From: Torpedo marmorata
Taxonomy: Eukaryota
DNA: 64,000 nucleotides
Direction of reading: 5' to 3'
NCBI GenBank assembly: GCA_977017645.1
Contig: OZ360242.1
Location: 18,166,001 to 18,230,000, forward strand
Below the pieces are notes generated by a model that was given only the letters and a program-made list of their open reading frames with translations, had not been told where the DNA came from and searched no databases. Positions within the stretch are counted from its first letter, which is position 1. Every line of letters begins with the position of its first letter. A program made the position numbers and the translations under genes. Positions 3,327-56,667 of the stretch are shown here, piece after piece.

Positions 3327-4289
3327 TCAGAATGACTGCCGCCAAGATGGCCACCCGGGAGATCGTGAAGATGGCCGCCCCCATGGATCGCATGCGGTCG
3401 AGTCCGGAGAAGAAGCAGGAAGTGACGTCAGTCCTTTTTGCTGCGCCCCTGGTCCGGAAGTTCGGTTCTCGGCACCCGGAAATGACGGCAGAAGTGGGTG
3501 GGCCCAAGATGGCGACGCAGGTCGTGGTCCGCACGCGGCACTGCTGGAGTGGGGCTTGGAGCGACATCCCCTGGCATAGTGTCCTTTCCTCTGGCAGTTT
3601 GAGCAGGTCGCGATACAGGCCGGACAGTACTTCCGCAGGTGCTTACTTTGGCCGCAGTAGTTGCACCTCGCGTGGTCGGCGGTGGCAGCTGCAGTCAGGG
3701 GCCCCGAATCCCAAGATAGCATCGCCCATTCTCCCCACCTGGTGGCCGCGTGGCCCGCTGAGTAGACCTCCGCATTCTTTTGGGCCGTCTCCATCGCTCA
3801 GGCCATTTGAACCACTTCCTGTAGGGACCGATCTCCTTTCTCTAGGAGTCGTTCCCTTATGTGCTGGGAGCGGAAGCCCATGACTAGCCCGTCATGGATG
3901 AGCTCCTCCTGGTAGAGCGCCGCATTCACGTCCCGGCACCCGCAGGCAAGTCCCAGCTCCCGCATGGCCCTCACGAAGTTGTCGACTGACTCACTGGGGC
4001 CCTGGCGTCGGGAGCCCAGCTGGAAGCGCGCGTACATGGCGTTGGTCGGGGCTCCACATTGCTGTCGGAGTAGGGCCATTGCCCCTTCATATTCAGTACA
4101 GTCTCGAATTATTTGGTACGCTCGGTGGCCCACCGCTGCGAAGAGCAGATCGTACTTATCAGGATCGGTTGTGATGTTGTGGCGTCTCAGGTAGGCCTTC
4201 AAGCAGTGAAGCCACATATCGAACTTTACGGAGGCCTCTGGTTCCTTCGGATCGATCTCCAGCTTCTCCAGTCTGATTGCCTTCTCCAT
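3327..4289 (-). pseudogene. Gag of element 1 with two zinc knuckles; in-frame stop at 3798-3800 plus a frameshift
   Basis: ORFs 3798-4289 and 3327-3794. CNYCGQSKHLRKYCPA..CSNCQRKGHYARGC motif. Aligns with the gag of element 2. Confidence 0.9.
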
Positions 4290-12002: not shown

Positions 12003-12292
12003 CAAATTGTGGTAAACCACTATAGTATGTATATGTGTATTGTGGGCTGGGGCAAGTCTGATCATGACCTGTCTGTCTGTCCCGGTGACTCCTCCCCCTT
12101 TCCCCTGGAATAAAGGCCTTGAGCCATTGACTCCACCCACAGTTCCGGGACAGTCCAGCAGGGATCACCAGGTCAAAGTGTAGCTTAGCCCTGGCCTGAT
12201 TTCTGGTAATAAAAGCCTATTGATTCCCTGCACTTCCTGACTCGCGTTAGTCATTGATAGGTACATCAATTTTATTACCAGTTCTAAATCTG

Positions 12293-13753
12293 ATGGAGAA
12301 TTTTCTGAGGCCGGACAAGCTGGACATCGACCCCCTGGCCCAAGACGCCGCAAGTGACTTTGAACTCTGGCTACGCTGCTTCGTAGCCTTCCTGAGGTCG
12401 ACCAGAGCGGCTACCAACGAGGATAAACTCGACATCCTCATGTCTAGGGTAAGCAAACGGGTGTATAACACCGTCAGAGACTGTGAAACCTATGAGGATG
12501 CCTTGGGAGCCCTCCGAAGACTGTACCTGACGCCAGTGAACGAGGTTTACGCGAGGCACAGGTTATCACAACGGCGCCAGCGACCCGGAGAGTCGATCTC
12601 CGAGTATATCCAGGACGTGCAGCTCCTGGTGCGGGCGTGCGATTGCCGAGCCCTGACGGCCGAGCAACACGCTGAAATATTGGCAAGGGACACTATCATT
12701 ATGGGGCTCAGGTCGGTTTACATTCGCCAGCGATTGCTGGAACACGCCGACCTGACCCTGAAATCTACCGTCCGCACGGCCCTCACGCTGGAGTCGGCGC
12801 TCAGGAACGCTGACGCTATGCAGGCGCAGCCTGCCTCGTGGATCGCCCCAACCGCCAGCCCTGCAAGCGACGTGACTGCCGCTGCCGTCTACCGGGACCC
12901 GATCGCCGCCGCCGACGCTATCCGTGAGTTGGCCGCTGCCGCCGCTACCCGGGAGCCCGCCGCCATCCGTGAGTTAACCGCTGCCGCTGTTACCCGGGAG
13001 CCCGAGAAGTGTTACTTCTGCGGGCTCGACAAACACCCACGTAAGCGCTGCCCGGCCCAAGACGCGACTTGTTCTAGCTGCGGCAAGAAAGGCCACTACG
13101 CTAAGGCCTGCCGCTCCAATTCGCGTACGGGTCCGAGCAGCGCCGCGTGCGAAGTAAGGGAGCGGCCATCTTACCTGTCGTCACTTCCGGCGGTGACCTC
13201 GTGCGAGGAATGGAGGCGGCCATCTTGGCCTTCGGCATTTCCGGTATCGACACTTCCGGCACGGCCATTTTATAGCCTCGCCGCGGCACTTCCAGCACTT
13301 CCGGCGCCGCCATCTTGTAGCGACACGTGCGACCTACGGGAGCTGCCGTCAGCGTCGGATCAAGACGGCTCGTCGGATCAAGACTTCGTCCCGACCCTGG
13401 CATCCGTGACACTGGATCAGAGCGCGCCCCATCAGCTGTCCAGATCGATGATGGACATATTAGTTGAGGGGCATAAGACTACCTGCCTGTTCGACACAGG
13501 CAGCACTGAAAGTTTTGTTCATCCAGACACCGTCCAGCGCTGTGGCCTCACAATTGTACCGGTAAGCCAGAGGGTGGCCATGGCGTCTGGAACGCACACA
13601 ACAGACATCCGGGGGGGGTTGTGTGGCGAATATAGTGGTACAGGGCACGGAATATCGCGGGTTTTCATTGTTGGTCATGCCCCGTTTGTGTGCTCCTGTA
13701 TTGCTGGGACTGGACTTCCAAAGCCACCTGTGAAGCGTCACCATGCACTATGA
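12293..13753 (+). CDS. gag: Gag-protease of element 2 (goes out of frame at the G8 run 13611-13618)
   Basis: The first ATG downstream of the LTR is at 12293. Two zinc knuckles CYFCGLDKHPRKRC / CSSCGKKGHYAKAC. LFDTGS protease motif. Confidence 0.9.
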   Translation: MENFLRPDKLDIDPLAQDAASDFELWLRCFVAFLRSTRAATNEDKLDILMSRVSKRVYNTVRDCETYEDALGALRRLYLTPVNEVYARHRLSQRRQRPGESISEYIQDVQLLVRACDCRALTAEQHAEILARDTIIMGLRSVYIRQRLLEHADLTLKSTVRTALTLESALRNADAMQAQPASWIAPTASPASDVTAAAVYRDPIAAADAIRELAAAAATREPAAIRELTAAAVTREPEKCYFCGLDKHPRKRCPAQDATCSSCGKKGHYAKACRSNSRTGPSSAACEVRERPSYLSSLPAVTSCEEWRRPSWPSAFPVSTLPARPFYSLAAALPALPAPPSCSDTCDLRELPSASDQDGSSDQDFVPTLASVTLDQSAPHQLSRSMMDILVEGHKTTCLFDTGSTESFVHPDTVQRCGLTIVPVSQRVAMASGTHTTDIRGGLCGEYSGTGHGISRVFIVGHAPFVCSCIAGTGLPKPPVKRHHAL

Positions 13754-16241
13754 TGGGCCCCACCCTCCGATCGTAGTGACCAACCCCCAGTACTTGAATA
13801 ATACGCCCCAGACTACCTGTGATCTCTCCACGCTGAAGACCCAACCCCCGTCACTTTTCGCCAACCTGACCCCTGACTGTAAGCCTGTAGCAACTAAAAG
13901 TAGGCGATACAGTGCAGGGGACAGGGCATTCATTAAGGCGGAGGTGCATCGTCTACTGGGGGAAGGGATCATCGCACCAAGTAACAGCCCCTGGAGAGCA
14001 CAGGTAGTCGTAGTGAAGAACGGGGCTAAGAGCCGGATGGTGGTGGACTATAGCCAGACCATTAACCGGTTCACGCAACTGGATGCCTATCCGCTGCCAA
14101 GAATCGCGGATATGGTCAACCAGATTGCGCAGTACAAAATATTTTCCACCATCGATCTAAAGTCGGCTTACCACCAGCTTCCGATTCGCCGGGAAGACCG
14201 AGCATACACCGCTTTCGAGGCGGACGGCAGATTATTCCATTTTCTGCGCGTCCCCTTCGGGGTAACAAACGGGGTATCTGTGTTTCAACGGGAGATGGAC
14301 AGGATCATTGACCAGTTCAAACTCACTGCCACCTTCCCGTACCTGGACGACATCACCATTTGTGGTCATGATCGCCAGGATCACGATAGGAACCTTCGGA
14401 AGTTCCTACAGGCGGCCAAGACGCTGAACCTCACTTATAACAAGGAGAAATGCGTGTTCGGGACTACCCGACTCGCTATCCTGGGGTGCGTCGTGGAGAA
14501 CGGGGTGATTGGACCCGACCCCGACCGCATGCGCCCCCTGTTGGAACTTCCGATTCCCCACACCCCCAAAGCCCTTAAACGATGCCTCGGGTTCTTCTCG
14601 TATTATGCGCAGTGGGTCCCAAACTACGCGGACAAAGCCCGACCCCTCGTCAAATCCACCAAGTTTCCCCTGGCAGCGGAGGCACGTGAGGCCTTCGACC
14701 CCATAAAAGGGGACATCGCCCGAGCAGCGATGCACGCGGTGGACGAGTCGGTACCTTTTCAGGTGGAGAGTGACGCATCGGACTTCGCACTGGCTGCTAC
14801 CCTCAACCAGGCGGGAAGACCGGTAGCGTTTTTCTCCCGCACCCTTCAAGGCCCCGAAATTCGGCACTCCGCGGTAGAGAAAGAGGCCCAGGCCATAGTT
14901 GAAGCTATTCGGCACTGGAGGCATTATCTCGCCGGAAAACATTTTACCCTGCTGACGGACCAGCGCTCCGTCGCATTCATGTTTAACAACCAGCAGCGGG
15001 GTAAAATCAAGAATGATAAAATCATGAGGTGGAGAATAGAACTCTCCACCTACAATTACGACATCCTTTACCGGCCCGGGAAGCTCAACGAGCCCTCCGA
15101 CGCTCTATCCCGGGGATCGTGCGCCAGCGCGCAGATCGACCGAGTATACTCCCTACACAACGACCTCTGCCACCCAGGAGTCACCAGGCTGTTCCACTTC
15201 ATCAAAGCACGGAACCTGCCTTACTCCCTGGAAGAGGTCAGAACCATGACCAGCAGCTGCCGAGTCTGTGCGGAGTGCAAGCCGCAGTTCTACCGCCCCG
15301 ACAGAGCACAGCTGGTCAAGGCCACCCGCCCGTTCGAACGTCTCAGTATAGACTTCAAGGGCCCCCTTCCCTCCACGAACCGCAACGTGTACTTCCTTAA
15401 TATCATCGATGAGTACTCGCGGTTCCCCTTTGCCATCCCCTGCCCCGATACCTCGGCGGCTTCGGCTATCAAAGCCCTCCGCCAGGTATTCACCTTGTTC
15501 GGGTTCCCCAGCTATGTCCATAGCGATCGGGGATCCGCGTTCATGAGCGAGGAGCTGCGGCAGTACCTGCAGACCCGAGGCATCGCCACCAGTAGGACCA
15601 CGGGGTACAACCCGCGGGGGAACGGACAGGTGGAGAGGGAGAACGCCACTGTATGGACAGCTACACTACTGGCCCTGAAATCAAAAGGGTGGCCAGTGGC
15701 CCGCTGGCAGGAGGTTCTCCCGGACGCCCTCCACTCTATACGATCCCTGTTATGTACCGCCACTAACGCTACCCCTCACGAACGTCTTTTTTCCTTCCCT
15801 AGAAAATCGACCACCGGAACTACCCTCCCTGCCTGGCTGATGTCCCCGGGACCGGTGCTACTCCACAAACATCTTCGGAGTAGCAAGTACGAGCCCTTGG
15901 TCGAGAGGGTGCAGCTGACCCACGCGAACCCGCAGTACGCATTCGTTGTTTTCCCCGACGGCCGGGAAGACACGGTGTCAATACGGGACCTGGCGCCTGC
16001 AGGAGCGTCAGAAGAGGTCCCCGACAGCGGAGAAGCCGGGTCACAGCTGCCCCCTCCGCCTCATCCGCCCCCCAGCACGGCGGGTACAACGCCCCAGCCG
16101 GAGCTGGATGAGCCACAAGCCAGGCAGGAGGCAACCCAGACCCAGACCCACCCTACCCTCGTTCCACAGCCACAACCATCACCGCAGGTATTACGCAGGT
16201 CACAGCGGCGAGCCCGACCGCCGGATAGACTCAATCTGTAG
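13743..16241 (+). CDS. pol: RT-RNase H-integrase of element 2 (intact reading frame, no chromodomain)
   Basis: YLDD, ESDASD, EKEAQAIV, H..LCHPG...CRVC, SDRGSAF, GNGQVER. Confidence 0.95.
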   Translation: MHYDGPHPPIVVTNPQYLNNTPQTTCDLSTLKTQPPSLFANLTPDCKPVATKSRRYSAGDRAFIKAEVHRLLGEGIIAPSNSPWRAQVVVVKNGAKSRMVVDYSQTINRFTQLDAYPLPRIADMVNQIAQYKIFSTIDLKSAYHQLPIRREDRAYTAFEADGRLFHFLRVPFGVTNGVSVFQREMDRIIDQFKLTATFPYLDDITICGHDRQDHDRNLRKFLQAAKTLNLTYNKEKCVFGTTRLAILGCVVENGVIGPDPDRMRPLLELPIPHTPKALKRCLGFFSYYAQWVPNYADKARPLVKSTKFPLAAEAREAFDPIKGDIARAAMHAVDESVPFQVESDASDFALAATLNQAGRPVAFFSRTLQGPEIRHSAVEKEAQAIVEAIRHWRHYLAGKHFTLLTDQRSVAFMFNNQQRGKIKNDKIMRWRIELSTYNYDILYRPGKLNEPSDALSRGSCASAQIDRVYSLHNDLCHPGVTRLFHFIKARNLPYSLEEVRTMTSSCRVCAECKPQFYRPDRAQLVKATRPFERLSIDFKGPLPSTNRNVYFLNIIDEYSRFPFAIPCPDTSAASAIKALRQVFTLFGFPSYVHSDRGSAFMSEELRQYLQTRGIATSRTTGYNPRGNGQVERENATVWTATLLALKSKGWPVARWQEVLPDALHSIRSLLCTATNATPHERLFSFPRKSTTGTTLPAWLMSPGPVLLHKHLRSSKYEPLVERVQLTHANPQYAFVVFPDGREDTVSIRDLAPAGASEEVPDSGEAGSQLPPPPHPPPSTAGTTPQPELDEPQARQEATQTQTHPTLVPQPQPSPQVLRRSQRRARPPDRLNL

Positions 16242-16626
16242 ATGTGATGGTGACTATGTAAATAATTTGTGTATATTTGTGTGATTTGTGTATCTTTAAT
16301 TACGGTAACCACTTCACCCCCCCCCCCCCCCGTCGGACTTGTTCTAAAAGAAGGGGTGAATGTGGTAAACCACTATAGTATGTATATGTGTATTGTGGGC
16401 TGGGGCAAGTCTGATCATGACCTGTCTGTCTGTCCCGGTGACTCCTCCCCCTTTCCCCTGGAATAAAGGCCTTGAGCCATTGACTCCACCCACAGTTCCG
16501 GGACAGTCCAGCAGGGATCACCAGGTCAAAGTGTAGCTTAGCCCTGGCCTGATTTCTGGTAATAAAAGCCTATTGATTCCCTGCACTTCCTGACTCGCGT
16601 TAGTCATTGATAGGTACATCACAAAT

Positions 16627-20488: not shown

Positions 20489-23400
20489 TGGCAATTAAAG
20501 AAAGAACAAACTTCTAGAACTATAACGGCTATAAAAAGGAATTCTAAGAAAATAACTTATAAACCGCGAGAAATAAATGATTCTTTCAAGGATTTTTATT
20601 TAAATTTATATAAATCTCAAACTGATAAAGATGATTCTAAAATTAATGAATTTTTATCCAAAATTAAGATGCCGAGGTTAAATATTCATAGTAAAGAATT
20701 TTTAGATTCACCATTTACGATGAGAGAAGTTAATGAGGTTCTTAGTTCTTTAACTAGTGGAAAATCACCAGGGGAGGATGGTTTCCCATCAGAATTTTTA
20801 TAAGGAATTTAAGGATTTATTGATACGTCCTTATATGGAGGTGTTAAAACAAATAACGGAAACTCATTCTCTACTGGAAACTTTTTCAAATGCAATAATA
20901 ACAGTTATACCTAAAAAAGATAGAGATTTGTTGAAAACAGAATCATATAGACCAATTTTGTTGCTAAATGTGGACTATAAGATAATTGCGAAAATTTTAG
21001 CAAATAGAGTGGCTAAATATTTACCAGATTTAATTCATGTAGATCAAGCAGGTTTTATTAAGAACAGATATTCAAAAGATAATATAGCTAGATTAATTAG
21101 TTTAACAAATGTGGCACAAAAGAGAGAGGAATTAGTGTTAGTATTAACATTACATGCCGAAAAGGCTTTTGATAGATTAGAGTGGAATTATTTATTTAAG
21201 GTACTGGAAAAATTTGGTTTTGGAACTACATTTATTAATTGGATTAAAACTATATATAAAGAACCATCTGCTAGAGTGGTCACAAATGGACAAATTTCTT
21301 CAAAATTTTCTTTGACTAGGTCAACCAGACAAGGTTGTCCTTTGTCGCCAGCATTGTTTATTTTAGCAATAGAACCTTTAGCAGAATTAATTAGACAGGA
21401 TATTAAGATTGCAGGTATTAAAGTTGGTAATGAAGAGCATAAAATTAGTTTATTTGCAGATGACATATTGATTTATATGACAAAACCTATTACTTCTTTA
21501 ATGCAATTGACTGTTTTATTGAGAGAATATGGAGAAATATCTGGTTATAATATTAATTCTGATAAAAGTGAAATTATGGCATTAACACAAGGGGATTATA
21601 GTAAATGTAAAGAAATTACACAATTTAAGTGGTCAAAGGAAGGAATTAAATATTTGGGAATAAAGATTGATACAAAATTAACTAATCTATATAAATTAAA
21701 TTATCTACCATTATTTATGAATATTAAAAAGGATTTAGAAAGTTGGAAGGATTTACCTATAACTTTAATGGGAAGGGTAAATTGTATTAAAATGAATGTT
21801 TTTCCGAGAATTCAATATCTTTTTCAATCAATTCCTTATGAAATCCCTCAAAAATTCTTTAAAGATTTAAATTTAATTATTAGGAAATTCTTGTGGAAAG
21901 GAAAGTTGGCTAGGGTAGGTATGGAGAAATTAACTTGGAATTATGAAATAGGTGGTTTACAACTTCCTAATTTTCAATATTATTATAAAGCAGCCCAATT
22001 AAAATTTATTAATGAAATGTTTGATTTAGGAAAATCTTCTGCTTGGATTAGAATAGAATTAAATAATATAGGAGAAGATTTGAAAGAAGGAGTTATTTAT
22101 AAATGGAATTCTAAATTATTATTAACAAGAGGGAAAAATTCTCCTATTTTTAGACATTTGTTAGAAATATGGAATGTACAGATATATTTTCACTTGTTCT
22201 TTTCCCTTCTCTTTTCTTTTTTTAGTTCTAGTATGGGGAGGGGATAAGGGATGGGAAGGGTGGAGGGTGGGTTGTTTTAGCGAGGGTGGACTTAGATGGG
22301 GTTAGATTCATGGTAATACGAAATTCCTATGTATCGTACTTAACTAATGTTTACTGTGTATTTTACATTATTTTGTATTATTGTGAAAAATTTGAAAATC
22401 TTAAAATAAAATATTTTAAAAAATAAAAAAAAAGAAATATGGAATCGAGTGGATAGAGAGATAGGAGCGAAAGGGTCAATTTCTCGAAAAATGCATCTGT
22501 ATCAAAATAAACTTATTCCATTTACTGTTGATAATCAATTATTTAAAATTTGGTTCCAAAAGGGAATTAAGAAAATAAATGATTGTTTTGAAGCTAGTAA
22601 ATTTATTACTTTTCAAAGAATGAAAGATAAGTTTAATGTATCAAATAATACACTTTTTGCTTATTATCAAATTAGAGGATTTTTAGTTGAAAGGTTGGGC
22701 TATAGTTTGATTTTATCAAGACAGAGTGAATTGGAATTATTAGTTACTAATGGAGTTGTAAATACATTTATTTCTCAAATGTATAGATTGTTACAGAGGA
22801 AAATACCTAAAGCAGGAATTCATAAATCAAGATTAAATTGGGAATCAGATTTGAATGTAACAATAGATGAAGAACATTGGAAAGAATTATGTAAACAAAG
22901 TATGACGAAGATTATTAATGTTAGATATAGATTAGTGCAATATAATTTTTTTCATCAATTATATTTAACACCTAAAAAATTAAAGAAATGTAATCTGACA
23001 TTATCCGGTTTATGTTTTAGATGTAATAGAGAGGAAGGTTCTTTTGTACATTCTACATGGTTTTGTCCAAAAGTATATGATTTTTGGTTGAAAGTTAAAA
23101 AGTTTTTAGATAAAGCATTAAGAATTACACTCCCAATGAATCCAATGATATTTTTGTTTGGAGATATTAAAAGAATTAGTGTTAAGATTAAATTAAATAT
23201 GTATCAAATAGAATTTTTACGTATTGCTTTAGTTGTTTCTAAGAAATGCATTGCTATTACATGGAAATCTGATGTAGATTTAGGGTTAGAAAGATGGCAT
23301 GCAGAACTTCGTTCATGTATACCACTTGAAAAAATTACTTATAATTTACGTAATAAATATCATTTCTATTTGAAAATATGGAGCCCATATATAAAAACTG

Positions 23401-23670
23401 TTGGTTTAAGGATTTGAAGATCTCCGGATATTGGATTGGACTGGCGAACCTGTGTTCCACAATAAAATTAGTTTATAGTTGTTCTTTTTAGATTGACATT
23501 CTCCTTACTTTATCTTTTTCTTCTTTCTTTCTTTCTTTTCGGGAGGGTTAGGGAGGGGAGGGAGGGAGGGAGGGAGGGGGGGTGAAAATGTATCACATGT
23601 AATTTGATAATTTTACATTTTAAACTATGTACTGTGTGATTTAAAAATTTTAAATAAAATATTTTAAAAA
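20489..23670 (+). mobile_element. L1-clade LINE, 5'-truncated, AT-rich ORF2 (RT and C-terminal Cys motif), with a nested insertion
   Basis: AEKAFD, RQGCPLSP, LFADD, IKYLGI, CFRC..HSTWFC. G-rich 3'UTR tract at 23541-23582, AATAAA and A tail. TSD AA(A/C)GTTTTGAGTC at 20476-20488 and 23671-23683. Confidence 0.93.
22176..22432 (+). mobile_element. 3'UTR-only fragment of a different L1-type element, inserted into the L1 ORF2
   Basis: 13-bp TSD AGAAATATGGAAT (22163-22175, 22433-22445). T-rich then G-rich tract, AATAAA, poly(A). Absent from the sister copy near 40550. Confidence 0.85.
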
Positions 23671-23785
23671 AACGTTTTGAGTCGAGACCCTGCATCAAAG
23701 GCAGTTTATCCTTCACTATATCTAATTACAAAAGATTCAGCAATGACTTTTGGAGGATGCACATGATGGCCTGTACATCTTGGCC

Positions 23786-25030
23786 TGTACTCATTGGAAT
23801 TTAGGAGAATGAGGGAGGATCTCATTGAAATATTTTGAATTTTGAAAAGGCATGGGCAGAGTAGATGTCGAAAGGTTGTTTCCCATGGTGGGAGAGTCTA
23901 GGACCAGAGGGCAAAACTTCAGGATTGAAGGGTGTCCACTTAGAACAGAAAGATGCAGAGGAATTTCTTCAGTCAGAGGGTGGTAAATCTGTGGAATTTG
24001 TTGCCACAGGCAGTTGTGGAGGCCGTCATTGGGTGTATTTAAGGCAGAGATTGATACGTTCTCGATTAGCCAGGTCATTCAAAGGTTATGTGGAGAAGGC
24101 CAGACAAGATCTAGATTTCAAGATTTCAAGATTCAATTTATTGTCATAGTAATAAGACAGTGTCATATTCCATGAAATTTCTTTTTTCCTGCTGCAAGGC
24201 AGACAGATTCGCTACCGGCAGAAATTGCCTAAGCGCCTCTAACATTCCTTACAGTCAGAGAAAGAGAAGCAAAAGAGAGTCCCCCCAGAGTCACCGAGTG
24301 TCCGTAGATTCGCCTCCACTGCTTCCGCAGCCACACAGAGTCCAGTCCAAATCATGGCAACCCGAGCTCCAGATCCGAACCTCCGACACGGTCAGAGCGC
24401 CCTCGGCACCCCCTCGCATCCTGGTTCTGATACCTGGTACTCCTCCAGCCAGTTCGAGCCAGCCTCCAGCAGTCTGCAGCCCGGCGTGAGTCCCCCGACA
24501 GCAGTCTCCAGCAGCCCACAGCCTCCGCGGGTTCCTCGCCTCGAGTTGCCAGCATGCACTGGTCCTTCAGCCTCAGAGCCCCTCACTGGTCCGCCGCCAT
24601 GGTCACCGTCCTGTGGGTCGTCTCCTCCGCTTCTCCTTCTCAGACGGGGGGTGATCTTCCCGTCCTCTGGTGCCCTGCTCCAGTCCTCCGCTTCCCCTCG
24701 TGGCTTCTGCCAGTTAAAAGGCGCTGCCATCTTGGGCGCAGACGTGCCCGTGGTCACGGGATCGTAAATAAAACCACCGTCGGCTCCCTCAACGGGCCGT
24801 TCAAAGCCCGTGCGGAACTGACGGCAGTTGACTGGGCGGTTGGACCCCGCGGGAGCGCTGTATCTCCGCTCCTACGCTCCCCGCGGGTCCGCACCAGCTG
24901 CAGCGCTGCCGGTACAGCGGCTCCGGCAGCGCCGCCATGATTCCCAATAGGGCTGATTCAATGGCAGGGCGGACTCGATGGGCTGAATACCCTATTTCTG
25001 CTCCTACGTCTTGTGGTTCTACGGTCTTAT
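23786..25030 (+). mobile_element. CR1/HER1-like LINE 3' fragment, split by the GC-rich retroposon at 24105-24945
   Basis: LYSLEFRRMREDLIE codons. The tail GACTCGATGGGCTGAAT resumes after 24945. Confidence 0.8.
24105..24945 (-). mobile_element. GC-rich non-coding retroposon, copy A
   Basis: Colinear with 55812-56667. Ends in ATGACAATAAATTGAATCTTGA(A) repeats. Confidence 0.8.
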
Positions 25031-30485: not shown

Positions 30486-33400
30486 TGTTACAAACTCAAA
30501 CCAGCAACAACAGAAGATGCAAAATACAGTCCCAAAAGTACAGTCCACAAAAGTCACTCTCTATGTCCAGGGTCCAAATTCAGCTCTGTGTGCTGGCATG
30601 AAGGACTTCTTAATGAGGGTTGCTGTTCAAATCAGTGTTCCACTGACGAAGGCGTGTACGTGGATCTCACAGCTCGTCTAGCTGATCTCACGCCTGTTAT
30701 CCACGAAAGTTGCTTTAAATCAGTATTTTGCTGATAAAGGAGGCCATGTGCTCTTCTCCATAGCCTTTCTAGCTGGAATGCACAGGCCTCTGTTTTTGCT
30801 GTTCTATCTCCAGCCTTTGCAACTCCACTGACTGCTTTTGCAGAGTTTTGCACCTGCTTTTGCAAAAGTGCAACAAAGAATATTTTTTTTACAGCCTGTC
30901 TCTCTCTCTATGTGTGTCTCTCTCTGAGCACAGCCAGCCCTGGGCAAGTTAACTCTTTCAGTACCTGGTCCCAGTGTGTACTCAAAAGACTTCATCCTTC
31001 CTGCTGACCATCCACAGTCCAAATAGTCAGATATGGTCCACAACACCTCCCACATAAAAAGAAAATTTTGGTGAGCAAGAACAAAATTTTGGAAATTAAT
31101 TGAGGTTTCACAATATAAACAAAACCCACAATGTTCATCCACAAACAAAAAAAATGAACTATTTTCATTTATAAAGTTTAGTATCTAGAAAGACAATCAG
31201 CGATTACATTATCCTTCCCTTTTATATGTGTTATCATTAAATAATATTCTTGCAAAATTAGAATCCAATTTAACAACCGTCGATTCTTATTTTTCATTTT
31301 ACAAAAAAAAACCAATGGATTATGGTCAGTATACACTATGAGTGGTTTTGAGCTGTACAGATATACACATCAAAGTGTTGTAGAGCCAACACAAGAGCTA
31401 ACAATTCTTTTTCTATGGTTGAATAATTCTTTTGATGATCATTGAACTTCTTCGGTCAATGTCCTCTGCGTTCTTCCTCTGTAACAGCACAGCACCCACA
31501 GCTTCATCGCTGGCATCCACGGCTAAAGAAAATGGCTTTTCTAAATCAGGTGACTTAAGCACAGGTTAGTGGCATAAAATGGTTTTCAATTTGACAAATG
31601 CTTTCTGACAACCTGTCGACCATACAAATTTTTCTCCCTTTCGAAGTTTTTACAGAACTTGCGATAGTAGCCAATCATTCCCAGGAACCTCCTCAGAGTT
31701 TTCTTACCAGTTGGAACAGGGAACTCGGAAATAGTCACAACCTTTGCCTCTACTGGCGCCAACTGCCCCTGTCCTACAACATAACCCAGATAAATAACAG
31801 TCGCATGTCCAAACTCACTTTTACTTAAATTAACTGTGAGATTTGCTTTTGACAGTCGTTTGAACAATTGGTTTAACTCAAAGACATGCTCTTCCCAAGT
31901 GTCACTACTTACAATTAAATCAATGTAAGCACCTGTGTTCTTCAACCCTTGAATTACTGATCATTCTCTGAAATGTTCCTGGAGCATTCTTCATCCCAAA
32001 AGGCATAACATTATACTCATACAGCCAAAAAGGTGTTACAAATGCAGAAATCTCCCTACCCCTTTTTGTCAAAGGAACACACCAGTACCCTTTCAATAAG
32101 TCAATTTTAGTAAGAAATTTGGCCTTCCCCACCTTGTCTATACAATCGTCTATTCTAGGAATAGGATAAGCATCTGCCTTTGTCACAGCATTTACTTTCC
32201 TATAATCAGTGCAAAACCTAACCGTTCCATCAGGCTTAGGCACTAAAACACAAGGTGAACTCCAATTGGAAGTAGACTTTCGAATGATACTGTTCTTTAA
32301 CATGTAGTCAATTTCCTGATCTACCAGTTTGCACTTATCTGCATTGATTCGATATGGATGCTGTTCTATAGGTCTTGCATTTTCTACATCCACATCATGA
32401 TAAGCTATGGAAATTTTCTGAGGCACAGCGGGAAATTAATTTATAAATTAAAAAAAATAACTGACTCATCTCTTCCTTTTCGGAAGTTTTGAGATGAGCC
32501 AACTTTGTCTCCAGATTGTGCAAAATCATGGAATTTTCTAACCTCAGGCTTATCAATTTCTGTGTCCCATGACCCTCTCTGAAACTGGTTTTATCTGTCT
32601 CCTCCTTACCCTGGTCGATAATCAGCACCTCTGGTAAATGTTCAGTCTCTTTGTGCGGCACCTGTTTAAAATATGGCTTAATCATATTCACATGACAGAC
32701 TTGTGTGTCTCGTCTGCGATTAGGTGTTTCTATGACATAGGTGACCTCATTAATTTTTGACAACTCTATAGGGTCCTGAAAATCTAGCCCTAAGGGGATT
32801 TGAATGTGTGGGAAACAGAACTAATTCGTTCTCACCAGGTTTAAAAGTTCTCATCATGGCCTTTCGATCATACCAAACCTTCATTCTCTGTTGAGTGGCC
32901 TTTAAAGTCTCCTTTACCATCTCACAAGCTTTATGCAACCGATCCTTAAATTTGGATCCATAATCCAACACATTTAAATGCACATCACTATTAATCCATT
33001 AATCTTTTAATAACCTTAAAGGACCTCTCACCTCATGTCTGAAAACTAACTCGAATGGACTATAACCAAGTGATTCTTGGACAGACTCCCTCGCTGCAAA
33101 TAACAACAAATGAACCCCCTCATCCCAATCCTTTTCATTCTCACAACAAGAAGTTCTAATCATGTTTTTTAAAGTCGAATGGAACATCTCTAAGGCCCCT
33201 TGACTTTCTGGATGGTACGCAGTGGATACAATCTGTTTAACTCCCAGTCTATCAACCACTTGTTGAAATACGCCTGACATGAAATTACTACCCTGATCTG
33301 ATTGAATTTCCCTCGGCAAACCTACCAAGGTGAAAAACTTTACCATAGCCTTTACAATTGCCTTTGCTTTAATGTTTCTCAGAGGCCTCCGGAAATCTGG

Positions 33401-35898
33401 TGGCTGCACACATAATTGTTAACAAATACTCTTTCCCTGCTTTGGTTTTGGGCAATGGGCCAACACTGTCCACAATCACTCTCGAGAAAGGTGACCACCT
33501 AAGGGTGTGCTATGAGCCAAAGTTATTATTTCATCCTTATATACTTTAGGGATCACAACCTGCTGCACTACTGCCCATTCATCACTGGCAGGAACATCAC
33601 ATGGTCTCCACTTTCTCATCAACACCCCATCTTTTTCATAATAACCCATTGGCACCTTCTTAATCTCCTCTTCAGAGAGAACCTTATCCCTCACCTCAGC
33701 AAGATCAGGATCCTCCTTTTGCCTTGCTATTAGCTCCTAACGGGATAGTGACAAATCTGTGCCTTTAGGTGTCTTATCAGTGTATGGGTATAACACAGGA
33801 GATTTATCAACCTTTTCCAGGTGTTTTTGATTATCACCGACTTTTTCTTTCACCAATTCATTTTCCACTGCCTTCTCTAGTGACATTTTTCTTAGACATG
33901 GCCCTGGTTATGGCACATGCTGGATAAATATCAGAGTCCTTCTCTGACTTATCAATGACTGGCATAGTGGTCATTTGCACTTCAGGAACTACTTTACGCT
34001 CAGCCAAGTCATTGCCTAGCAACAGTGAGACTCCTTCTACTGGTAACTCTGATCTCACCCCTATTATTACAGCTCCTTCCACCAAGGCTGAGTTCAACAC
34101 TATTTTGTGCAAAGGAATGCACTCAACATCACCCCCAATTCCTTTAATTAAATTCATTTCACCGGTGTCAGTGGCTTCACAAAATTCCAAGACACTATCT
34201 TACACAAGTGACTGAGCAGCTCCAGTATCTCGCAAGATTTTCACTGGAACTTGCTTTGAATCTGCCTTAACTGAAACAGAACCATCAGTAAATTTATCTC
34301 CTTCCTGGGTGTTATGTCTCTTCTCACTCTGAATACAAGCATTAGGTGTTGCATCCTTTTCTCTCTTCTTTTTCAACACAGGACAGCTTGCTAGCATATG
34401 ACCAGCCTTCCTACAGTCGTGGCAAATGGGACCCGAAGGGTTTTCCTTTTTCCTCTCCCCTTCATCTCTTCCCTTAACACCACTTCCAAATTTACTTTCC
34501 ACTTGATTGGGATTATCCACAGTGCCCTTTTGGAATATTCTGCCTGACATCTACTTAGGCTTGTGGGTTAAAGCATATTCATCTGCTAACTTAGCTGAAT
34601 CTTGCCAAGTTTTCACCTCCTTTTCATCTAAGTATGCCTTAATATTCTCAGGAACACATCTTTTTATCTCCTCAATTAGTATCAATTCTCTCAATTGATT
34701 GTAATCATTGTTTACCGCCTTAGATGTGCACCACCGGTCAAAACACACAACCTTTTCACAGGCAAACTCTGTATAAGATTGGGTTGCTGATCTTTTTAAA
34801 TTTCTAAACTTCTGTCTATAAGCCTCTGGAACTAACTCATAAGCCTGGAGTATAGCCTTTTCCACCGTTTCATAATCAGCAGCTTGCTCCGTGGTAAGAG
34901 CAGAATAAGCTTGCTGAGCTTTCCCTTTAATTACACTTTGTAACGTAAGAGACCATTGGTCTTGCGGCCATTTTAATTTCACAGCCACCTTTTCAAAATG
35001 CTGGAAGTATTTATCTATTTCTGCCTCCTCAAATGGAGGAACCAACCTAACTTCTCTACTGGCCAAAAACCTCTCAACAGGATCATGAATTTGATCTTGG
35101 GGTTCTTCTTGTCTCCTCTCATTTTCCAATTTAATCTTTTCCAGCTGATGTTGCCTAATTTTCTCCTCATTCTCTAAGTCTCATCTCTTTTGTTCTCTGG
35201 CTGCCTCCAAGTCTAATCTCTTTTATTACAATTCCAATTTCTTCAATTCCAACTGTGTGTTCTCAGAAGGTTTACCCTTGATAAACTGCTCTAACATGCT
35301 CTCCTCAAACTTTTTTCCTTTTATATAGTATTTGGCAATTTTTCTCCCAATCTCCGCCTTTTTCATTGTTGGTTTTACAGAAGCAATGCTCAACACTGTT
35401 GCTATAGCCACTAACTGTTCCTTTTTAGCCTTTTTCAAGGCATCAGGTTTGGGTGATTCCAAAAAAATGTCTACATCCATTGTTGCTGGTTTATGTTACA
35501 CACACACTACCTTTTAATTAGATTTACAAAAGGAATGACTTAAACCAGACTGGAATTCCTTCAATTACCAAGCTGGAGCTTCACTCAAACTAAGCCAATT
35601 GATCTCCAATCAATCAACCTCTAAGCTCCCAAATTTGTTTTGATCCCAAATTTGTTTGGATCCCGGACGATTTATCACCAATCAATCAACCCCTAAGTTC
35701 CTAAATTTGTTGCGATCTTGGACGAGCCCCCAATTTGTTACAAACTCAAACCAGCAACAACAGAAGACGCAATGCAAAGGGGTTAAAATTTAAATTTATA
35801 TTTATTAAAGACAATTCAATATATAACTTCTTAATGATTAACCCCACTATAAATGTCTATAACAACTATTCAGTTATCAAATACTTATCTAAAGTGTA

Positions 35899-35935
<37 letters not shown>

Positions 35936-36626
35936 GCCCAGACCATTACAGTCTGTGCCCAACCCTCATGTAAAATGGAAAACCTTCCCCAAAACCCCAG
36001 GTCAGTCATAAAAATAAGTCAGTCCTAAAAATACAGTCCACAAAAGTCACTCTCTATGTCCAGGGTCCAAATTCAGCTCTGTGTGCTGGCATGAAGGACT
36101 TCTTAATGAAGGTTGGAGAGAGAGACACTGACTGTTTTAAGCTTATGAATACTTGGTCTGCTATATCCTTCCGATGACTTTCCTTTTGTAGGTCCACGAG
36201 GGTTGCTGTTCAAATCAGTGTTCCACTGATGAAGGCGTGTACTTGGAACTCACAGCCAGTCTAGCTGATCTCACGCCTGTTATCCACGAAAGTTGCTTTA
36301 AATCAGTATTTTACTGATAAAGGAGGCCATGTGCTCTTCTCCACAGCCTTTCTAGCTGGAATGCACAAGCCTCTGTTTTTGCTGTTCTCTCTCTAGCCTT
36401 TGCAACTCCACTGACTGCTTTTGCAGAGTTTTGCACCTGCTTTTCCAAAAGTGCAACAAAGTATATTTTTCACAGCCTATCTCTCTCTCTTTGTGTGTCT
36501 CTCTCTGAGCACAGCCAGCCCTGGGCAAGTTAACTCTTTCAGTATCTGGTCCCAGTGTGTACTCAAAAGACGTCATCCTTCCTGCTGACCGTCCGCAGTC
36601 CAAATGGTCAGTCATGGTCCATAACA
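30486..36626 (-). mobile_element. Gmr1-like Ty3/Gypsy LTR retrotransposon 'element 3' (PR-IN-RT-RH order), degraded
   Basis: LTRs at 35736-36626 (5') and 30486-31045 (3', internally deleted). 4-bp TSD ATAC (30482-30485, 36627-36630). Gag 35480-34551, ILRDTGA protease near 34230, integrase 33700-32750 (SDQGSNF, GPY) lying upstream of RT 32426-31600. Confidence 0.93.
35715..35732 (-). promoter_or_regulatory. tRNA-Pro primer-binding site of element 3
   Basis: TGGGGGCTCGTCCAAGAT, 3 nt from the LTR. 16/18 match to the canonical Pro PBS TGGGGGCTCGTCCGGGAT. Confidence 0.85.
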
Positions 36627-38141
36627 ATACCCAAATGGTACACTATCCAACACTGTACATTATATATTCTGTAAACTCAATGGGCACAATCTCACTGTCA
36701 GACAACTCCACTAGCCACACTATTTGTTCATCCTTTCACAATCACATTCCTTATTCTTTGTGCACACTGATAAGGCCAGGCAATCCCACTCTGCATGATC
36801 ACTGTGCACACATTCCCACACTGAGCGAACATTCATTACCCTTACTCTGCATTTAATATGTTCACTGTATATGTGATATGTGATCTCATTATGATACAAT
36901 TCCACACCATACACACTGTGTATACTTTGTCACACTCTTATTCTCACATTCCCACAATTTACACTGATTCCCAAACAACCCAACTCTCTACACTCATAGG
37001 GATGAGAATGTCACACTGTACACTACACTATCACACAATTTCTGTCTGTCCATACAATGAGGGGCACACTTACAATGCATTCAACGCATCTCAAACTGTA
37101 CACAATCTATCCTACGATCCCAAACTGTACAAACATCATGCACACTTACTGATACATGAATTCACACATTAAACTCACAGCCACAATCTGTCACATAATC
37201 CCATATTGTGCACCCATCCTGGGCGTTCTTTCTCACTCCTCTACAGAGAAGTCTCCGTGTACATTTACGTTGCAAACTTCATTCCACTCATCTACAGTTT
37301 ACTCACTGTCACACAATTCCACTCACTACAGACACTCTCCACCACTGCAGACAATCACCACCACTGCACACTGTTATGCACCATGAATGACCATTTCGAC
37401 TGCGGACGGTCAGCAGGAAGGATGAAGTCTTTTTGAATACACACTGGGACCAGGTACTGAAACAGTTAACTTGTCCAGGACTGGCTGTGCTCAGAGAGAG
37501 AGACACACATAGAGAGAAAGAGAGACAGGCTGTGGAAAGATACTTTGTTGCACTTTTGCAAAAGCAGGTGCAAACCTCTGCAAAAAGCATTCAGTTTGGA
37601 GTTGCAAAAGGCTGGAGAGAACAGCAAACACAGAGGCTTGTGCATTCCAGCTGGAAAGGCTGGAAGAATAGCACATGGCCTCCTGTATCAGCAAAATCCT
37701 GAGATAAAGCAACTTTCGTGGAGAACAGGCGTGAGATCAGCGAGACAGGCTGTGAGATCCAAGTATGTGCCTAAATCAGTGGTATACTGATTTGGAATTG
37801 CAATCCTCGTGCATGTACCAAAAGGGAAAGTCATCAGGGAAGAAAAGCAGGCCAAGCATTCGTAAGCTTAAACAGTCATTGTCTCTCTCTCCAACGTTCA
37901 TTAAGAAGTCCTTCGTGCCAACGCACAGAGCTGAATTTGGACCCTGAATATAGAGAGTGATTTTTGTGGACTGTATTTTTGGGACTGACTTATTTTTATG
38001 ACTGACCTGGGGGTTTTGGGGTATGTTTTCCATTTTTACATGAGGGTTGGGCACAGACTGTTATGGTCTGGGCTTTACACACACACACACACTCTTTAGA
38101 TAAGAATAGTGTTTATAGACGTTTATAGTGGGGTTAATTGT

Positions 38142-38696
38142 CATGGGCATATGGGGACTCCTTGGTTCAGTGGGGCAGAGGGGTTGATTTGCCCGAAATT
38201 GTACACGGTGCCTGCACTGCGCCCGGGCCGTCCCGCAACTCACATCCGGGCCCGGACACAGGCCACTGCCTGCTCCGTGAACCGGCTGCCGGCATGCTGA
38301 GTGGGGGGAGGAGAAGGTGTTGACCGGGCTGAACGGAGAGGTGCTGAACCGGGGGGGGTGGGGGGTGGGTGGTAAATAGCTAGACGCATGCTACGTGCGC
38401 CAAGCTAGTCTCTAGTGACGCTTGACACACGCTAGTGGCAGGGGCGGGTCTGACCGCGAGCGATGGCCACGAGTGTATGGGGGGGGCACAGTACCTCGCT
38501 TGGGGGGCAATGCCCGTGAATGCCCCCCCCTTGGCACCGACCCTGGTGGAGCGGGACCGCCGTCATTGTTAATTTGTTTATCTTTATGCTTTTCTGTCCG
38601 ATTTTTTTTCTTCTTGCTTTACCCAAATTTTCCCTGCTGTTTTGTCTGAATCTGGGGGGCAACTGCCCCAACTGCCCCCCGGCTCGTACACCTATG
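38142..38696. mobile_element. Non-autonomous hAT-type DNA transposon inserted in the 5' LTR of element 4
   Basis: 8-bp TSD TTAATTGT (38134-38141, 38697-38704). Imperfect TIRs CATGGGCATA / TACACCTATG. The empty site is visible in the 3' LTR near 43322. Confidence 0.82.
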
Positions 38697-38722
38697 TTAA
38701 TTGTTAAGAAATTATATGTTTA

Positions 38723-41700
38723 GAGATCAGAAGAAAAGAGGAAAAATTTAATCGAAAAAAAATTGCATTATAATACGTTACAAACATATAAAATGGAAAA
38801 ATTAATTGAAAGAACTAAGCAACGATACTATGAATTGGGAGAAAGAGCACATAAAGTGTTGGCATGGCAATTAAAGAAAGAACAAGCTTCTAGAACTATA
38901 AATGCCATAAAAAAGAATTCAAAGAAAATAACATATAAACCTTGAGAAATAAATTATTCCTTTAGGGAATTTTATTTAAATCTATATAAATCTCAAACTG
39001 ATAAAGATGATTCTAAAATTAATGAATTGTTATCTAAAATTAAGTTACCTAGATTAAATACTCAAAGTAAAAGAACTTTTAGATTTGTCGTTTTCGATGA
39101 GGGAAGTTTATGATGTTCTTAGCTCTTTAACGAGTGGAAAATCTCCAGGGGAGGATGGTTTCCCATCAGAATTTTATAAGGAGTTTAAGGATTTATTGAT
39201 ACATCCATATATGGAGGTGTTAAAACAAATAACGGAAACTCATTCTCTTCCGGAAACGTTTTCAAATGCAATAATTACAGTTATACCAAAAAAAGATAGA
39301 GATGTATTGAAAACAGAATCATATAGACCAATTTCATTGTTAAATGTGGATTATAAGATAATGGCAAATATTTTATCAAATAGAGTGGCTAAATATTTAC
39401 CAGACTTAATTCATGTAGATCAAGCAGTTTTTATTAAGAATAGATATTCAAAAGATAATATAGCCAGATTAATTAGTTTAATAAATGTGGCACAAAAGAA
39501 AGAGGAATTAGCATTAGAATTAACATTAGATGCCAAAAAGGCTTTTGATAGATTAGAGTGGAATTATTTATTTAAAGTATTGGAAAAATTTGGTTTTGGA
39601 ACTACATTTATTAATTGGATTAAAACTATATATAAAGAACCTTCTGCTAGAGTGGTGACAAATGGACAAATTTCTTCAAAATTTTTGTTGACTAGGTCAA
39701 CCAGACAAGGATGTCCTTTGTCGCCAGCATTGTTTATTTTAGCAATAGAACCTTTAGCAGAATTAATTAGACAAGATATTAAGATTGTAGGTATTAAAGT
39801 TGGAAAAGAAGAGCATAAAATTAGTTTATTTGCATATGACGTATTGATTTATATGACAAAACCTATTACTTCTTTAATACAATTGAATGTTTTATTAAAA
39901 GAATATGGGGAAATATCTGGTTATAAGATTAATTCTGATAAAAGTGAAATTATGGCATTGACACAAGGGGATTATAGTAAATGTAAAGAAATTACACAAT
40001 TTAAATGGTCAAAGGAAGGAATTAAATATTTGGGAATAAAGATTGATACAAAATTAGCCAATTTATATAAATTAAATTATTTACCATTATTTATGAATAT
40101 TAAAAAAAGATTTAGAAAGTTGGAAGGATTTACCTATAACTTTAATAGGAAGGGTAAATTGTATTAAAATGAATGTTTTTCCAAGAATTCAATATCTTTT
40201 TCAATAAATTCCTTATGAAATTCCTCAAATTTTTTTTTAAAGGTTTAAATTTAATTATTAGGGTGTTTTTGTGGAAAGGAAAGTTGGCTAGAGTAGTTAT
40301 GGAGAAATTAACTTGGAATTATGAAATGGGTGGTTTACAACTTCCTAATTTTCAAAATTATTATAAAGCAGCTCAATTAAAATTTATTAATGAAATGTTT
40401 GATTTAGGAAAATCTTCTGCTTGGATTAGAATAGAATTAAATAATATAGGTGAAGATTTGAAAGAAGGAGTTATTTATAAATGGAATTCTAAATTATTAT
40501 TAACAAGAGGGAAAAACTCTCCTATTTTTAAAAATTTTTTAGAAATATGGAATAGAGTGGATAGCGAGATAGAAGGGAAAGGGTTAATTTCTCAAAAAAT
40601 GCCTTCATATCAAAATAAACTTATTCCATTTACTGTTGATAATCAATTATTTAAAATTTGGTTCCAAAAGGGAATTAAGAAAATAAATGATTGTTTTGAA
40701 GCCAGTAAATTTATTACTTTTCAAAGAATGAAAGAAAAGTTTAATATATTAAATAATACAGTTTTTGCTTGTTATCAAATTAGAGCATTTTTAGTTGAAA
40801 GGTTGGGTTATAGTTTGACTTTACCAAGACAAAGTGAACTGTAATTATTAATTACTAATGGAGGTGTAAATAAATTTATTTCTCAAATGTATAGATTGTT
40901 ACAGAGAAAAATGCCTAAATTAGGAATTCATAAATCAAGATTAAAATGGGAATCAGATCTCAATGTAACAATAGATGAAGAACATTGGAAAGAACTATGT
41001 AAACAAAGTATGACAAAGATTATTAACATTAGATATAGGTTAGTGCAATATAATTTTTTTCATCAATTATATCTAACACCTAAGAAATTAAAGAAATTTA
41101 ATCTGACATTATCAGGTTTATGTTTTAGATATAATAGAGAAGAAGGTTATTTTGTACACTCTACATGGCTTTGTCCAAAGATATATGATTTTTGGTTGAA
41201 AGTTAAAAAGTTTTTAGACAAAGTATTAAGAATTACACTCCCAATTGATCCTATGATATTTTAATTTGGAGATATTAAAAGAATTAGTATTAAGATGAAA
41301 TTAAATATGTATCAAATAGAATTTTTGCGAATTGCTTTAGCTGTTTCTAAGAAATGCATTGCTATTACTTGGAAATCTGACGTAGATTTAGGGTTAGAAA
41401 GATGGCATGCAGAACTTCGTTCAGCTATACCACTTGAAAAAATTACTTATAATCTACGTAATAAATATCATTTCTTTTTGAAAATATGGAGCCCATATAT
41501 AAAAACTGTTGGTTAAAAGATTTGAAGATCTCTGGATATCAGATCTGACTGGCAAATCTATCTTCCACAATAAAATCAGCTTATAGTTGTTCTTTTTTAG
41601 ATTGACATTCTCCTTACTCTATCTTTTTCTTTCTTTCTTTTCTATTTTAGTAGATTAGTAGTGGTTGGAGGGTTAGGGAGGGGGGGGGTGAAAATGTATC

Positions 41701-41787
41701 ACATGTATTTTGATAATTTTGCATTTTATACTATGTATTCTGTGATTTTAAAATTTTAAATAAAATATTTAAATTAAAAAAAAAACA
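38723..41787 (+). mobile_element. L1-clade LINE, 5'-truncated, same family as 20489-23670, disrupted (LFAYD, frameshifts)
   Basis: ORFs 39085-40167, 40173-40844, 40887-41264 and 41295-41516. Poly(A) tail. 14-bp TSD AAATTATATGTTTA (38709-38722, 41788-41801). Confidence 0.93.
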
Positions 41788-55811: not shown

Positions 55812-56667
55812 GGGAAAATGGCGGCACTGCCGGAGCCGCTGTAACGGCAGCGCTGCCACTGGTGCGGACCCGCAGGGAGCGAAGGAGCGGAGATGCAGCG
55901 CTCCCGCAGGGTCTAGCCACCCAGTCGACTGCCGTCGGCTCCGCACGGGCTTTGAATGGCCTGTTGAGGGAGCCGACGGTGGTTTTATTTGAGATCCCGC
56001 GACCGTGGGGTCTGCGCCCAAGATGGCAGCGCCTATTAATTGGCAGCAGCCACGAGGGGCTGCAGACTCCGGGGAAGCGGAGGACTGGAGCAGGGCACCA
56101 GAGTACGGAAAGATCACTCCCCCGTCTGAGAAGGAGAAGCGGAGGAGACGACCCACGGGACGGTGACCACGGCGCCGGACCGGTGAGGGGCTCTGAAGCT
56201 GAAGGACCAGTGCATGCGGCAAGCTGCTGGCGACCCGAGGCGAGGAACCTGCGGAGGCTGTGGGCTGCTGGAGACTGCTGTCGGGAGACTCGCGCCGGGC
56301 TGCTGACTGCTGGAGACTGGCTCGAATTGGCTGGAGGAGTATCAGGTATCGGAACCGGGATGCGAGGGGGTGCTGAGGGCGCCGAAGAGTTCCTGACCGT
56401 GTCAGAGGTTCGGATCTGGAGCTCGGGTTGCTGATCGTTTGGACTGGACTCTGTGAGGCTGCGGAAGCGCTGGAGGCGAATCTATGTACACTCGGTGACT
56501 CTGGGGGGGACTCTCTTTTGCTTCTCTTTCTCTGACTGTAAGGAACGTTAGAGGCGCTTCGGCAATTTCTGCCGGTGGCGAATCTGTCTGCCTTGCAGCA
56601 GGCAAAAATAAATTTCATGTAATATGACACTGTTTTATTACTATGACAATAGATTGAATCTTGAATC
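55812..56667 (+). mobile_element. GC-rich non-coding retroposon, copy B
   Basis: Starts GGGAAAATGGCGGC, ends ATGACAATAGATTGAATCTTGAATC. Colinear with 24105-24945. Confidence 0.8.

Follow-up and report, generated by a model that had tools for sequence, protein, structure and literature searches.

The promoter of the yeast retrotransposon Ty1 is reported to extend into gag (TYA), where antisense RNA also starts (PMC3384299). The ray element analysed in this study resembles Ty1 in being an LTR retrotransposon with, by prediction, regulatory sites that reach about 1 kb into gag and antisense starts inside gag. However, Ty1 is described in that paper as a Ty1/copia element with dispersed sites for yeast factors and proven activity, whereas the ray element is a vertebrate Ty3/gypsy element, in which a tandem, in-frame array of YY1/E-box/ETS-type words is confined to the linker between nucleocapsid (NC) and protease, and activity is predicted. 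Another related case is ORF1 of mouse L1, for which an antisense promoter lying over the first coding region, and removable by synonymous recoding, has been reported (PMC3985663). Mouse L1 is a non-LTR element, the abstract of that report mentions no repeated YY1/ETS array, and function was shown there, while for the ray element it is inferred.

The 5' monomers of mouse L1 and the YY1 site of human L1 provide a further parallel, i.e. tandem promoter units with YY1, and binding of YY1 to L1 has been seen when DNA methylation is absent (PMC7778262). In contrast to the ray units, which are translated, internal and oriented in the opposite direction, the monomers are described as non-coding and as driving sense RNA from the 5' end. 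The same motif set is reported for TATA-less YY1/ETS housekeeping promoters and for TISU (bioRxiv 10.1101/2023.06.27.546584, PMC11160661, PMC13017510, PMC2518114), and the likeness extends to the order ETS-then-YY1, found on the minus strand of the ray array, and to the AAGATGGC core (this word is given in PMC2518114, and CCGGAAGTG in PMC11160661). The ray array differs from these promoters in that it is multiplied 2-8 times inside an open reading frame, with no conserved frame after the ATG, and in that the bulk of its copies shows no sign of protection from methylation.

The ray element is also similar to Mag and Micropia/Mdg3 elements, which are described as having two CCHC knuckles, short LTRs, a 5-bp target-site duplication and a length of about 4.6 kb, and antisense RNA has been reported for Micropia (PMC2577118, PMC3286476, PMC6797199). 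The ray clade, likened to them by description, differs in its primer site, which pairs with its own LTR and not with tRNA-Leu or tRNA-Ser, and in its expanded motif-bearing linker, which is absent from distant relatives. No account of such an array in a gypsy linker was found in the literature searched, which was that outside subscription journals and Repbase/Dfam. What sets it apart from Ty1 and the L1 cases is an array that is translated, in frame and variable in copy number.

The window (the whole 64-kb stretch of DNA that was analysed) contains two such elements, which are 71% identical in pol. Element 1 lies on the minus strand. Element 2 (12008-16621) has 5' and 3' LTRs without a single mismatch and a 5-bp target duplication, and is therefore a very recent insertion. 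Its features are as follows:

12003..12007 and 16622-16626, plus strand: left and right copies of the 5-bp target-site duplication
12008..12268, plus strand: 5' LTR, 261 bp, TG...CA, CpG-poor, with two AATAAA words and no YY1 site
12270..12281, plus strand: primer-binding position, whose 12 nt can pair with LTR nt 196-207
12271-12276, minus strand: AATAAA word within the primer-binding position
12293..13123, plus strand: gag, with the capsid region, an Ala-rich tandem repeat (12904-13005) and two CCHC knuckles
13124..13412, plus strand: expanded Gag-protease linker with the motif array
13413..13753, plus strand: aspartyl protease, with a frame shift at the G8 run 13611-13618 in this copy
13734..16241, plus strand: pol, i.e. 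RT, RNase H and integrase (PF00078, PF17917, PF00665)
16361..16621, plus strand: 3' LTR, with a polypurine tract ahead of it

The order of domains (gag followed by PR-RT-RNase H-integrase), the TG...CA LTRs, the target-site duplication and the polypurine tract place the element in Ty3/gypsy. Its translation contains two CCHC arrays in the nucleocapsid, described as a trait of Mag that is common to Micropia/Mdg3 (PMC2577118), and element 2 is Mag-like by this number of knuckles, a criterion which also fits Micropia/Mdg3. The primer site of Culex Mag elements is described as complementary to tRNA-Leu or tRNA-Ser (PMC3286476). Element 2 differs from them in this trait: nucleotides 12270-12281 pair over 12 nt with LTR positions 12203-12214, which hold the AATAAA signal, a layout resembling self-priming. 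Two further observations concern the coding region. The Ala-rich repeat at 12904-13005, a second in-frame tandem repeat (period 45, CpG-dense), lies between the capsid and the knuckles, and its length varies among families. About 91 of 100 copies retain a Met-Met-Asp sequence (13440-13451 in element 2) just before the protease, which might be an internal start; a sense internal pol RNA starting ahead of it was considered and set aside, as an element with a single frame has little need of extra Pol.

The linker of element 2 carries words which we take, from their consensus motifs, to be YY1, ETS, E-box and CRE sites; they were scored as consensus words and not as a PWM library. Four YY1-type sites, GCCAT(C/T)TT, start at 13165, 13219, 13264 and 13309, and three ETS-type sites, CACTTCCGG, at 13182, 13251 and 13296, with the ETS variants CATTTCCGG at 13236 and CACTTCCAG at 13287. 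The array and its counterpart in element 1 are arranged as follows (motif names by consensus):

13144..13190, minus strand: unit 1, with an E-box-like word (13144-13149), a G-rich flank (13158-13165), a YY1-type site (13165-13172) and a half-CRE (13179-13183) overlapping an ETS site (13182-13190)
13198..13259, minus strand: unit 2, with an E-box-like word (13198-13203), a YY1-type site (13219-13226), an ETS variant (13236-13244) and an ETS site (13251-13259)
13264..13316, minus strand: short units, with YY1-type sites at 13264-13271 (TTT/Phe form) and 13309-13316, a weak ETS variant (13287-13295) and an ETS site (13296-13304)
13324..13350, minus strand: decayed last unit, in which the E-box CACGTG (13324-13329) is kept and the YY1 position has been lost in the family
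3344..3537, plus strand: homologous array of element 1, with YY1-type sites at 3344, 3368 and 3506, ETS-type sites at 3416, 3454 and 3476, a full CRE (3423-3430) and an E-box-like word at 3532

All YY1 and ETS sites of element 2 lie on one strand, antisense to the element, and in a single codon phase of the gag-PR frame. These motifs had first been pointed out in an earlier note on this DNA, whose description was largely borne out: the ETS-type sites and their variants are exactly where it had placed them, the antisense orientation is common to all sites, and the protein encoded here, which it had called low-complexity, is a Pro/Ser/Ala-rich repeat. The four YY1 sites are likewise present, but had been given starts (13162, 13216, 13262 and 13307) which are 2-3 nt too early, as the GC-rich 5' flank was included. 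Base composition predicts 0.003 YY1 and 0.001 ETS sites per 159 nt. In the control with redrawn codons that the note had proposed (peptide fixed, the element's own codon usage), four YY1 sites arose in none of 100,000 draws and three ETS sites in a single one. Exact CACTTCCGG has only these three occurrences on both strands of the 64-kb window, and the other GCCAT(C/T)TT matches of the window are isolated and have no ETS partners.

The motifs of element 1 lie on the same strand relative to the element as those of element 2, with one ETS site in another codon phase. The full CRE of element 1 abuts an ETS word, and a full CRE is also present in some other families. The CRE (3423-3430) or half-CRE (13179-13190) overlaps the ETS word in each element, which recalls the ETS-CRE composite that occurs in proximal promoters.

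The distribution of the array was surveyed in the 6.2-Gb genome, in which a degenerate protease pattern has 37,303 matches. The sample comprised the first 100 of these listed, all on one contig (C1); since sampling was by the protease motif alone, the copies were not chosen by their YY1 or ETS motifs. Linker bins, defined as 600-100 bp upstream of the protease motif (50 kb in total), contain 379 YY1-type sites on one strand versus 1 on the other, and 171 versus 1 ETS sites. The corresponding numbers for the remaining 348 kb are 11 and 2 (YY1-type) and 14 and 26 (ETS). From two to eight YY1-type sites, confined to the linker, are present in 97 of the 100 copies, and the three copies devoid of them have no linker. 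A composite YY1-ETS-YY1 pattern has 35,356 overlapping matches genome-wide, as compared with none for the reversed control, and all 30 loci checked fall inside the linker, from gag to protease, of this clade. One copy, L076 (G000:C1:69347-72372), has a deletion between the Ala-rich repeat and the last unit, which takes out both knuckles together with the whole motif array.

Clustering of the 100 copies and the two window elements, with 7 dropped for poor alignment, produced 18 families at 10% distance, which hold 95 of the 102 sequences. ETS sites were found in 70 of the 100 copies and are absent from families 1-3 and 5-7. The alternation of YY1 and ETS sites that had been described is therefore real in element 2 but not general, and YY1, rather than the alternation, forms the core of the array. 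In three linkers of family 12 (L095, L096 and L104) the ETS word has turned into the palindrome TTCCGGAA and can be read on either strand. As to the factor, the genome encodes a GABP-alpha domain.

The repeated unit is larger than a YY1 and ETS pair. It consists of an E-box-like word, a YY1-type site with a G-rich flank and, in the majority of families, an ETS-type site after it, and is repeated 2-8 times on one strand, only between the zinc knuckles and the protease. The E-box-like word C(A/G/T)CGTG stands 21 bp before YY1 in 192 cases (free position: A 98, G 96, T 77, C 18), and in 101 cases an ETS word comes after YY1, the counted offset being 18. The uniform strand can reflect simple inheritance from one founding unit and does not in itself prove a directional function. 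A TISU-type AAGATGGC core is present on the minus strand of the linker, where the frame opened by its ATG differs in length among families (medians of 16-145 aa). An antisense protein was rejected as a candidate product, as no antisense frame of gag stays open across families.

We consider it highly probable that the array is real, clade-wide and constrained at the level of nucleotides. Of the 102 linkers, 52 remain in frame without a stop, and these were used to examine the codon signature. The full motif is written by 205 of 330 Pro-Ser/Phe pairs in the linker, compared with 3 of 348 pairs in pol and 1 of 47 in gag; such pooled counts overstate independence, given the common ancestry of copies and units. 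The residue before Pro varies (Arg, Pro, Gln, Trp, Leu), yet its codon ends in G, and the residue after the motif pair varies as well (Tyr, Trp, Leu as TTG, Cys, Ser, Phe), yet its codon starts with T. At the free position of CCATNTT, C occurs 329 times, T 57, A 3 and G 3, i.e. as Ser/Phe swaps which keep the motif. When units were chosen only by their amino acids (C-x5-P, from ten families and two copies outside any family), CCA was used in 163 of 165, and a number of third positions were fixed at 0.90-1.00 in codons whose first and second positions vary. Fixation also extends beyond the YY1 core, to several Gs at third positions.

The divergence control was a codon alignment of 12 families with 58 RT copies. 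In RT only 6.3% of the fourfold sites shared by these families are invariant, and pairwise identity at such sites is as low as 0.30; the proportion is 3.9% in the knuckle and 0% in the protease (the last two from few sites, about 2 and 9 per draw). In contrast, invariance at the three synonymous sites of unit 1 was seen in 67%, 86% and 40% of draws, respectively. The first base of the codon after the unit 1 motif is invariant in 85% of draws and its other two bases in 0%, and all four third bases occur in a Ser codon that lies 45 nt ahead of the protease motif. Since synonymous letters are fixed while flanking amino acids change and fourfold sites are near saturation, the constraint acts on nucleotides and not on the protein. 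Synonymous motif letters kept across diverged families also signify retention beyond simple tandem duplication, the absence of which the earlier note had named among the grounds for abandoning its proposal.

These data largely refute the reading of the array as a neutral minisatellite, in which a single chance unit, without function, would have been amplified and homogenised by template switching. The unit lengths, which vary in multiples of three, and the turnover of units between families are in keeping with such an origin, as is decay of units in some families: unit 1 is broken by a synonymous change in 4 of 13 copies of family 12, and in family 15 YY1 is kept in 35 of 55 units, the lost ones including the last unit of element 2. 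However, conservation within the unit is patchy, with motif letters fixed and spacers free, and the fourfold sites directly on either side are scrambled. We regard a neutral origin as very improbable.

The codon test covers one genome, and other species were compared at the protein level (163 related proteins). The closest named proteins are from rays. Longer linkers with a similar repeat occur in named proteins of Mobula, Hypanus, Hemitrygon, Narcine, Scyliorhinus and Mustelus, and long linkers of the array type were not seen in distant relatives among the 163 proteins. Two distant relatives (P0012 and P0013) have independently lengthened linkers rich in Pro, Tyr and Ser, with another type of repeat. 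Named elasmobranch proteins contain 12 C-x5-P[SF] units in 12 proteins, versus 1 in 115 others, and the residue after a P[SF] pair is one whose codons start with T in 24 of 36 elasmobranch cases versus 23 of 58 others. In a quick gag tree (129 rows, with 43 proteins dropped for too little gag) the rows from elasmobranchs and from this genome, 18 in total, all cluster with three other rows at SH-aLRT 94; this is below the starred level, and is compatible with a single origin but no proof of one. DNA of relatives in other species was not confirmed in metagenome or viral contigs.

The elasmobranch distribution of the C-x5-P[SF] units would also suit a repeat of the protein (C-x5-P-S, often with Trp and in some cases resembling PPxY) serving particle assembly or cleavage, with the identity of codons left by recent duplication. 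Cys and Pro are constant in the units, and often Trp, so some protein constraint is possible, and PPSY is present in some families. PPSY alternates, however, with PPSC, PPFC and PPSW. Moreover, it is the first and second codon positions that vary and the third that are fixed, and families near fourfold saturation keep the same codons, which makes the protein repeat a quite improbable explanation of the array.

A single gag-pol frame needs a means of making excess Gag. This need, together with the third-position Gs fixed outside the YY1 core, lends some weight to a signal acting in RNA or cDNA (packaging, dimerisation, recoding, splicing or binding of a host factor to the pre-integration DNA), so that the likeness to promoters would be incidental or used outside transcription; nucleotide-level constraint cannot tell DNA from RNA. 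We consider such a signal unlikely. No consistent RNA fold was detected in 11 linkers, one per group (sense-strand z from -1.2 to +1.3; on the antisense strand -2.4 and -1.8 in two linkers and 0.0 to +2.1 in the rest), and the variation allowed follows the degeneracy of YY1 and ETS consensus sites. Inspection by eye of the matches listed revealed neither a splice acceptor nor a slippery heptamer common to them. A candidate splice acceptor at 13264-13274 was rejected, as among those matches it is not common to other families.

The regions outside the linker provide a different picture. For the LTR side, the 282 nt that precede the primer site were taken from 71 copies; these stretches contain no YY1 and 3 ETS sites, have a CpG o/e of 0.30, and carry two AATAAA words, which lie about 140 and 65 nt ahead of the primer site. 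A motif-poor LTR side fits an internal helper role of the linker array, as predicted from its motifs. The LTRs, which the note had called very short and perhaps compensated for by the array, are of ordinary length for such an element, as 261 bp is inside the range of 119-304 bp of Mag elements in one insect table (PMC3286476).

The array had also been likened to a YY1 and ETS promoter of the CpG-island type. The part of this likeness concerning motifs above chance, nucleotide constraint and high GC and CpG content was upheld: positions 13100-13299 have a GC content of 0.63 and a CpG o/e of 1.2, and the whole internal region, not the linker alone, is CpG-rich (o/e about 0.9-1.0). The part concerning protection from methylation was not. 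In seven families with at least 5 copies, CpG decay was not reduced in the linker (transitions 0.084 versus 0.069 in gag and 0.066 in PR-RT; GpC control 0.038 versus 0.025 and 0.019). Since linker CpGs decay like the rest, typical copies have no standing CpG island, and most genomic copies are likely to be methylated and silent. The array is therefore not classed as a CpG-island promoter, and its promoter role is a prediction; the decay data leave room for activity in a few source copies or in a germline window.

Normal decay of linker CpGs is also what would be expected of a YY1 docking array used for silencing or self-restraint, through methylation or copy-limiting antisense RNA, and not for boosting sense transcription. 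The nucleotide-level conservation would be the same, and there are precedents: YY1 is reported to mediate repression and methylation of young human L1 (PMC7778262), the antisense promoter in ORF1 of mouse L1 to limit retrotransposition (PMC3985663), and antisense RNA of Ty1 to repress Ty1 (PMC3384299). However, the clade has reached a very high copy number (37,303 matches to the protease motif), with young copies and multiplied sites, which a gain to the element explains more easily, and the accompanying ETS, CRE and GC-rich words are motifs of the activator type. Restraint is thus, in our opinion, an unlikely function, albeit the least unlikely of the alternatives.

Judging from its motifs, the array is probably, although by no means certainly, an internal YY1-based promoter/enhancer module, which would aid the element's own transcription. 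The linker would be the only stretch of the single gag-pol frame able to take up in-frame insertions, and units could for this reason have been multiplied there through slippage of the template. YY1, together with a bHLH factor and GABP/ETS, would bind in an unmethylated source copy, about 0.9-1.1 kb downstream of the LTR; the bound array would open chromatin and feed the TATA-like LTR start, and this would be the benefit kept by selection. That the benefit is a sense boost and not restraint is inferred.

An antisense RNA start from the array, across gag, is also predicted. In human promoter models YY1 is described as strand-specific, with starts just upstream of it, while motifs of the ETS, CREB and SP types work in both directions (bioRxiv 10.1101/2023.06.27.546584, PMC11160661, PMC13017510), and AAGATGGC is reported downstream of transcription starts in one orientation (PMC2518114). 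On the antisense strand of the linker ETS is ahead of YY1, and minus-strand starts would fall inside the array because YY1 sites of that strand place starts just upstream. The product would be a non-coding RNA of about 0.9-1 kb, for which the minus-strand AATAAA of the primer-binding position (12271-12276) is a possible poly(A) signal and end point. An AATAAA word precedes the gag start in 75 of 102 sequences, and an earlier minus-strand AATAAA lies within 8 of 50 gag stretches. This fit may be due to chance, since the word is explained as the partner of the LTR signal. A search for processed copies of the predicted antisense RNA produced no matches, but its sense control found only one locus (3 overlapping matches), too few for the negative to carry weight.

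A bolder proposal, which we put forward as doubtful, is that the clade has moved its main transcriptional control from the LTR into a translated, expandable array of the housekeeping-promoter type, with an antisense unit ending at the AATAAA of the self-priming site. With more than 30,000 copies, the array would then be, gated by methylation, a major supplier of YY1/ETS promoters to the genomes of rays and sharks, and a cause of the expansion of the clade.

The array appears to be a case of dual coding, in which the amino-acid repeat is a by-product of selection on words bound by regulators. It suggests a route by which a compact element with a plain LTR may gain and tune vertebrate control of the housekeeping type while keeping its single frame. 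If active, the array would scatter YY1/ETS promoters and antisense RNA over the 6.2-Gb genome in tens of thousands of copies, and would be relevant to the expansion of genomes and the control of transposons in cartilaginous fishes. The natural variants (2-8 YY1 sites, with or without ETS, at fixed spacings of 21 and 18 bp) constitute a ready series for studying the grammar of YY1 promoters.

Several other repeats were observed in the window. At its left edge (1-62) the 3' LTR of element 1 abuts a piece of LTR that starts like the LTR of element 2, which suggests a nested insertion. LTR-like pairs lie at 30615-36636 and 37497-43186 (direct repeats of about 440 and 520 bp); their interiors are AT-rich and have no long ORFs, and the two share a common sequence in inverted orientation. 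The segments 20489-23672 and 38865-41778 are copies with 85-95% identity, very AT-rich and with ORFs of 223-497 codons, and are likely to represent an L1-type element. Finally, 24125-24938 and 55818-56665 are inverted copies (89-95%) of about 830 bp, which are CpG-rich and carry single YY1-type sites.
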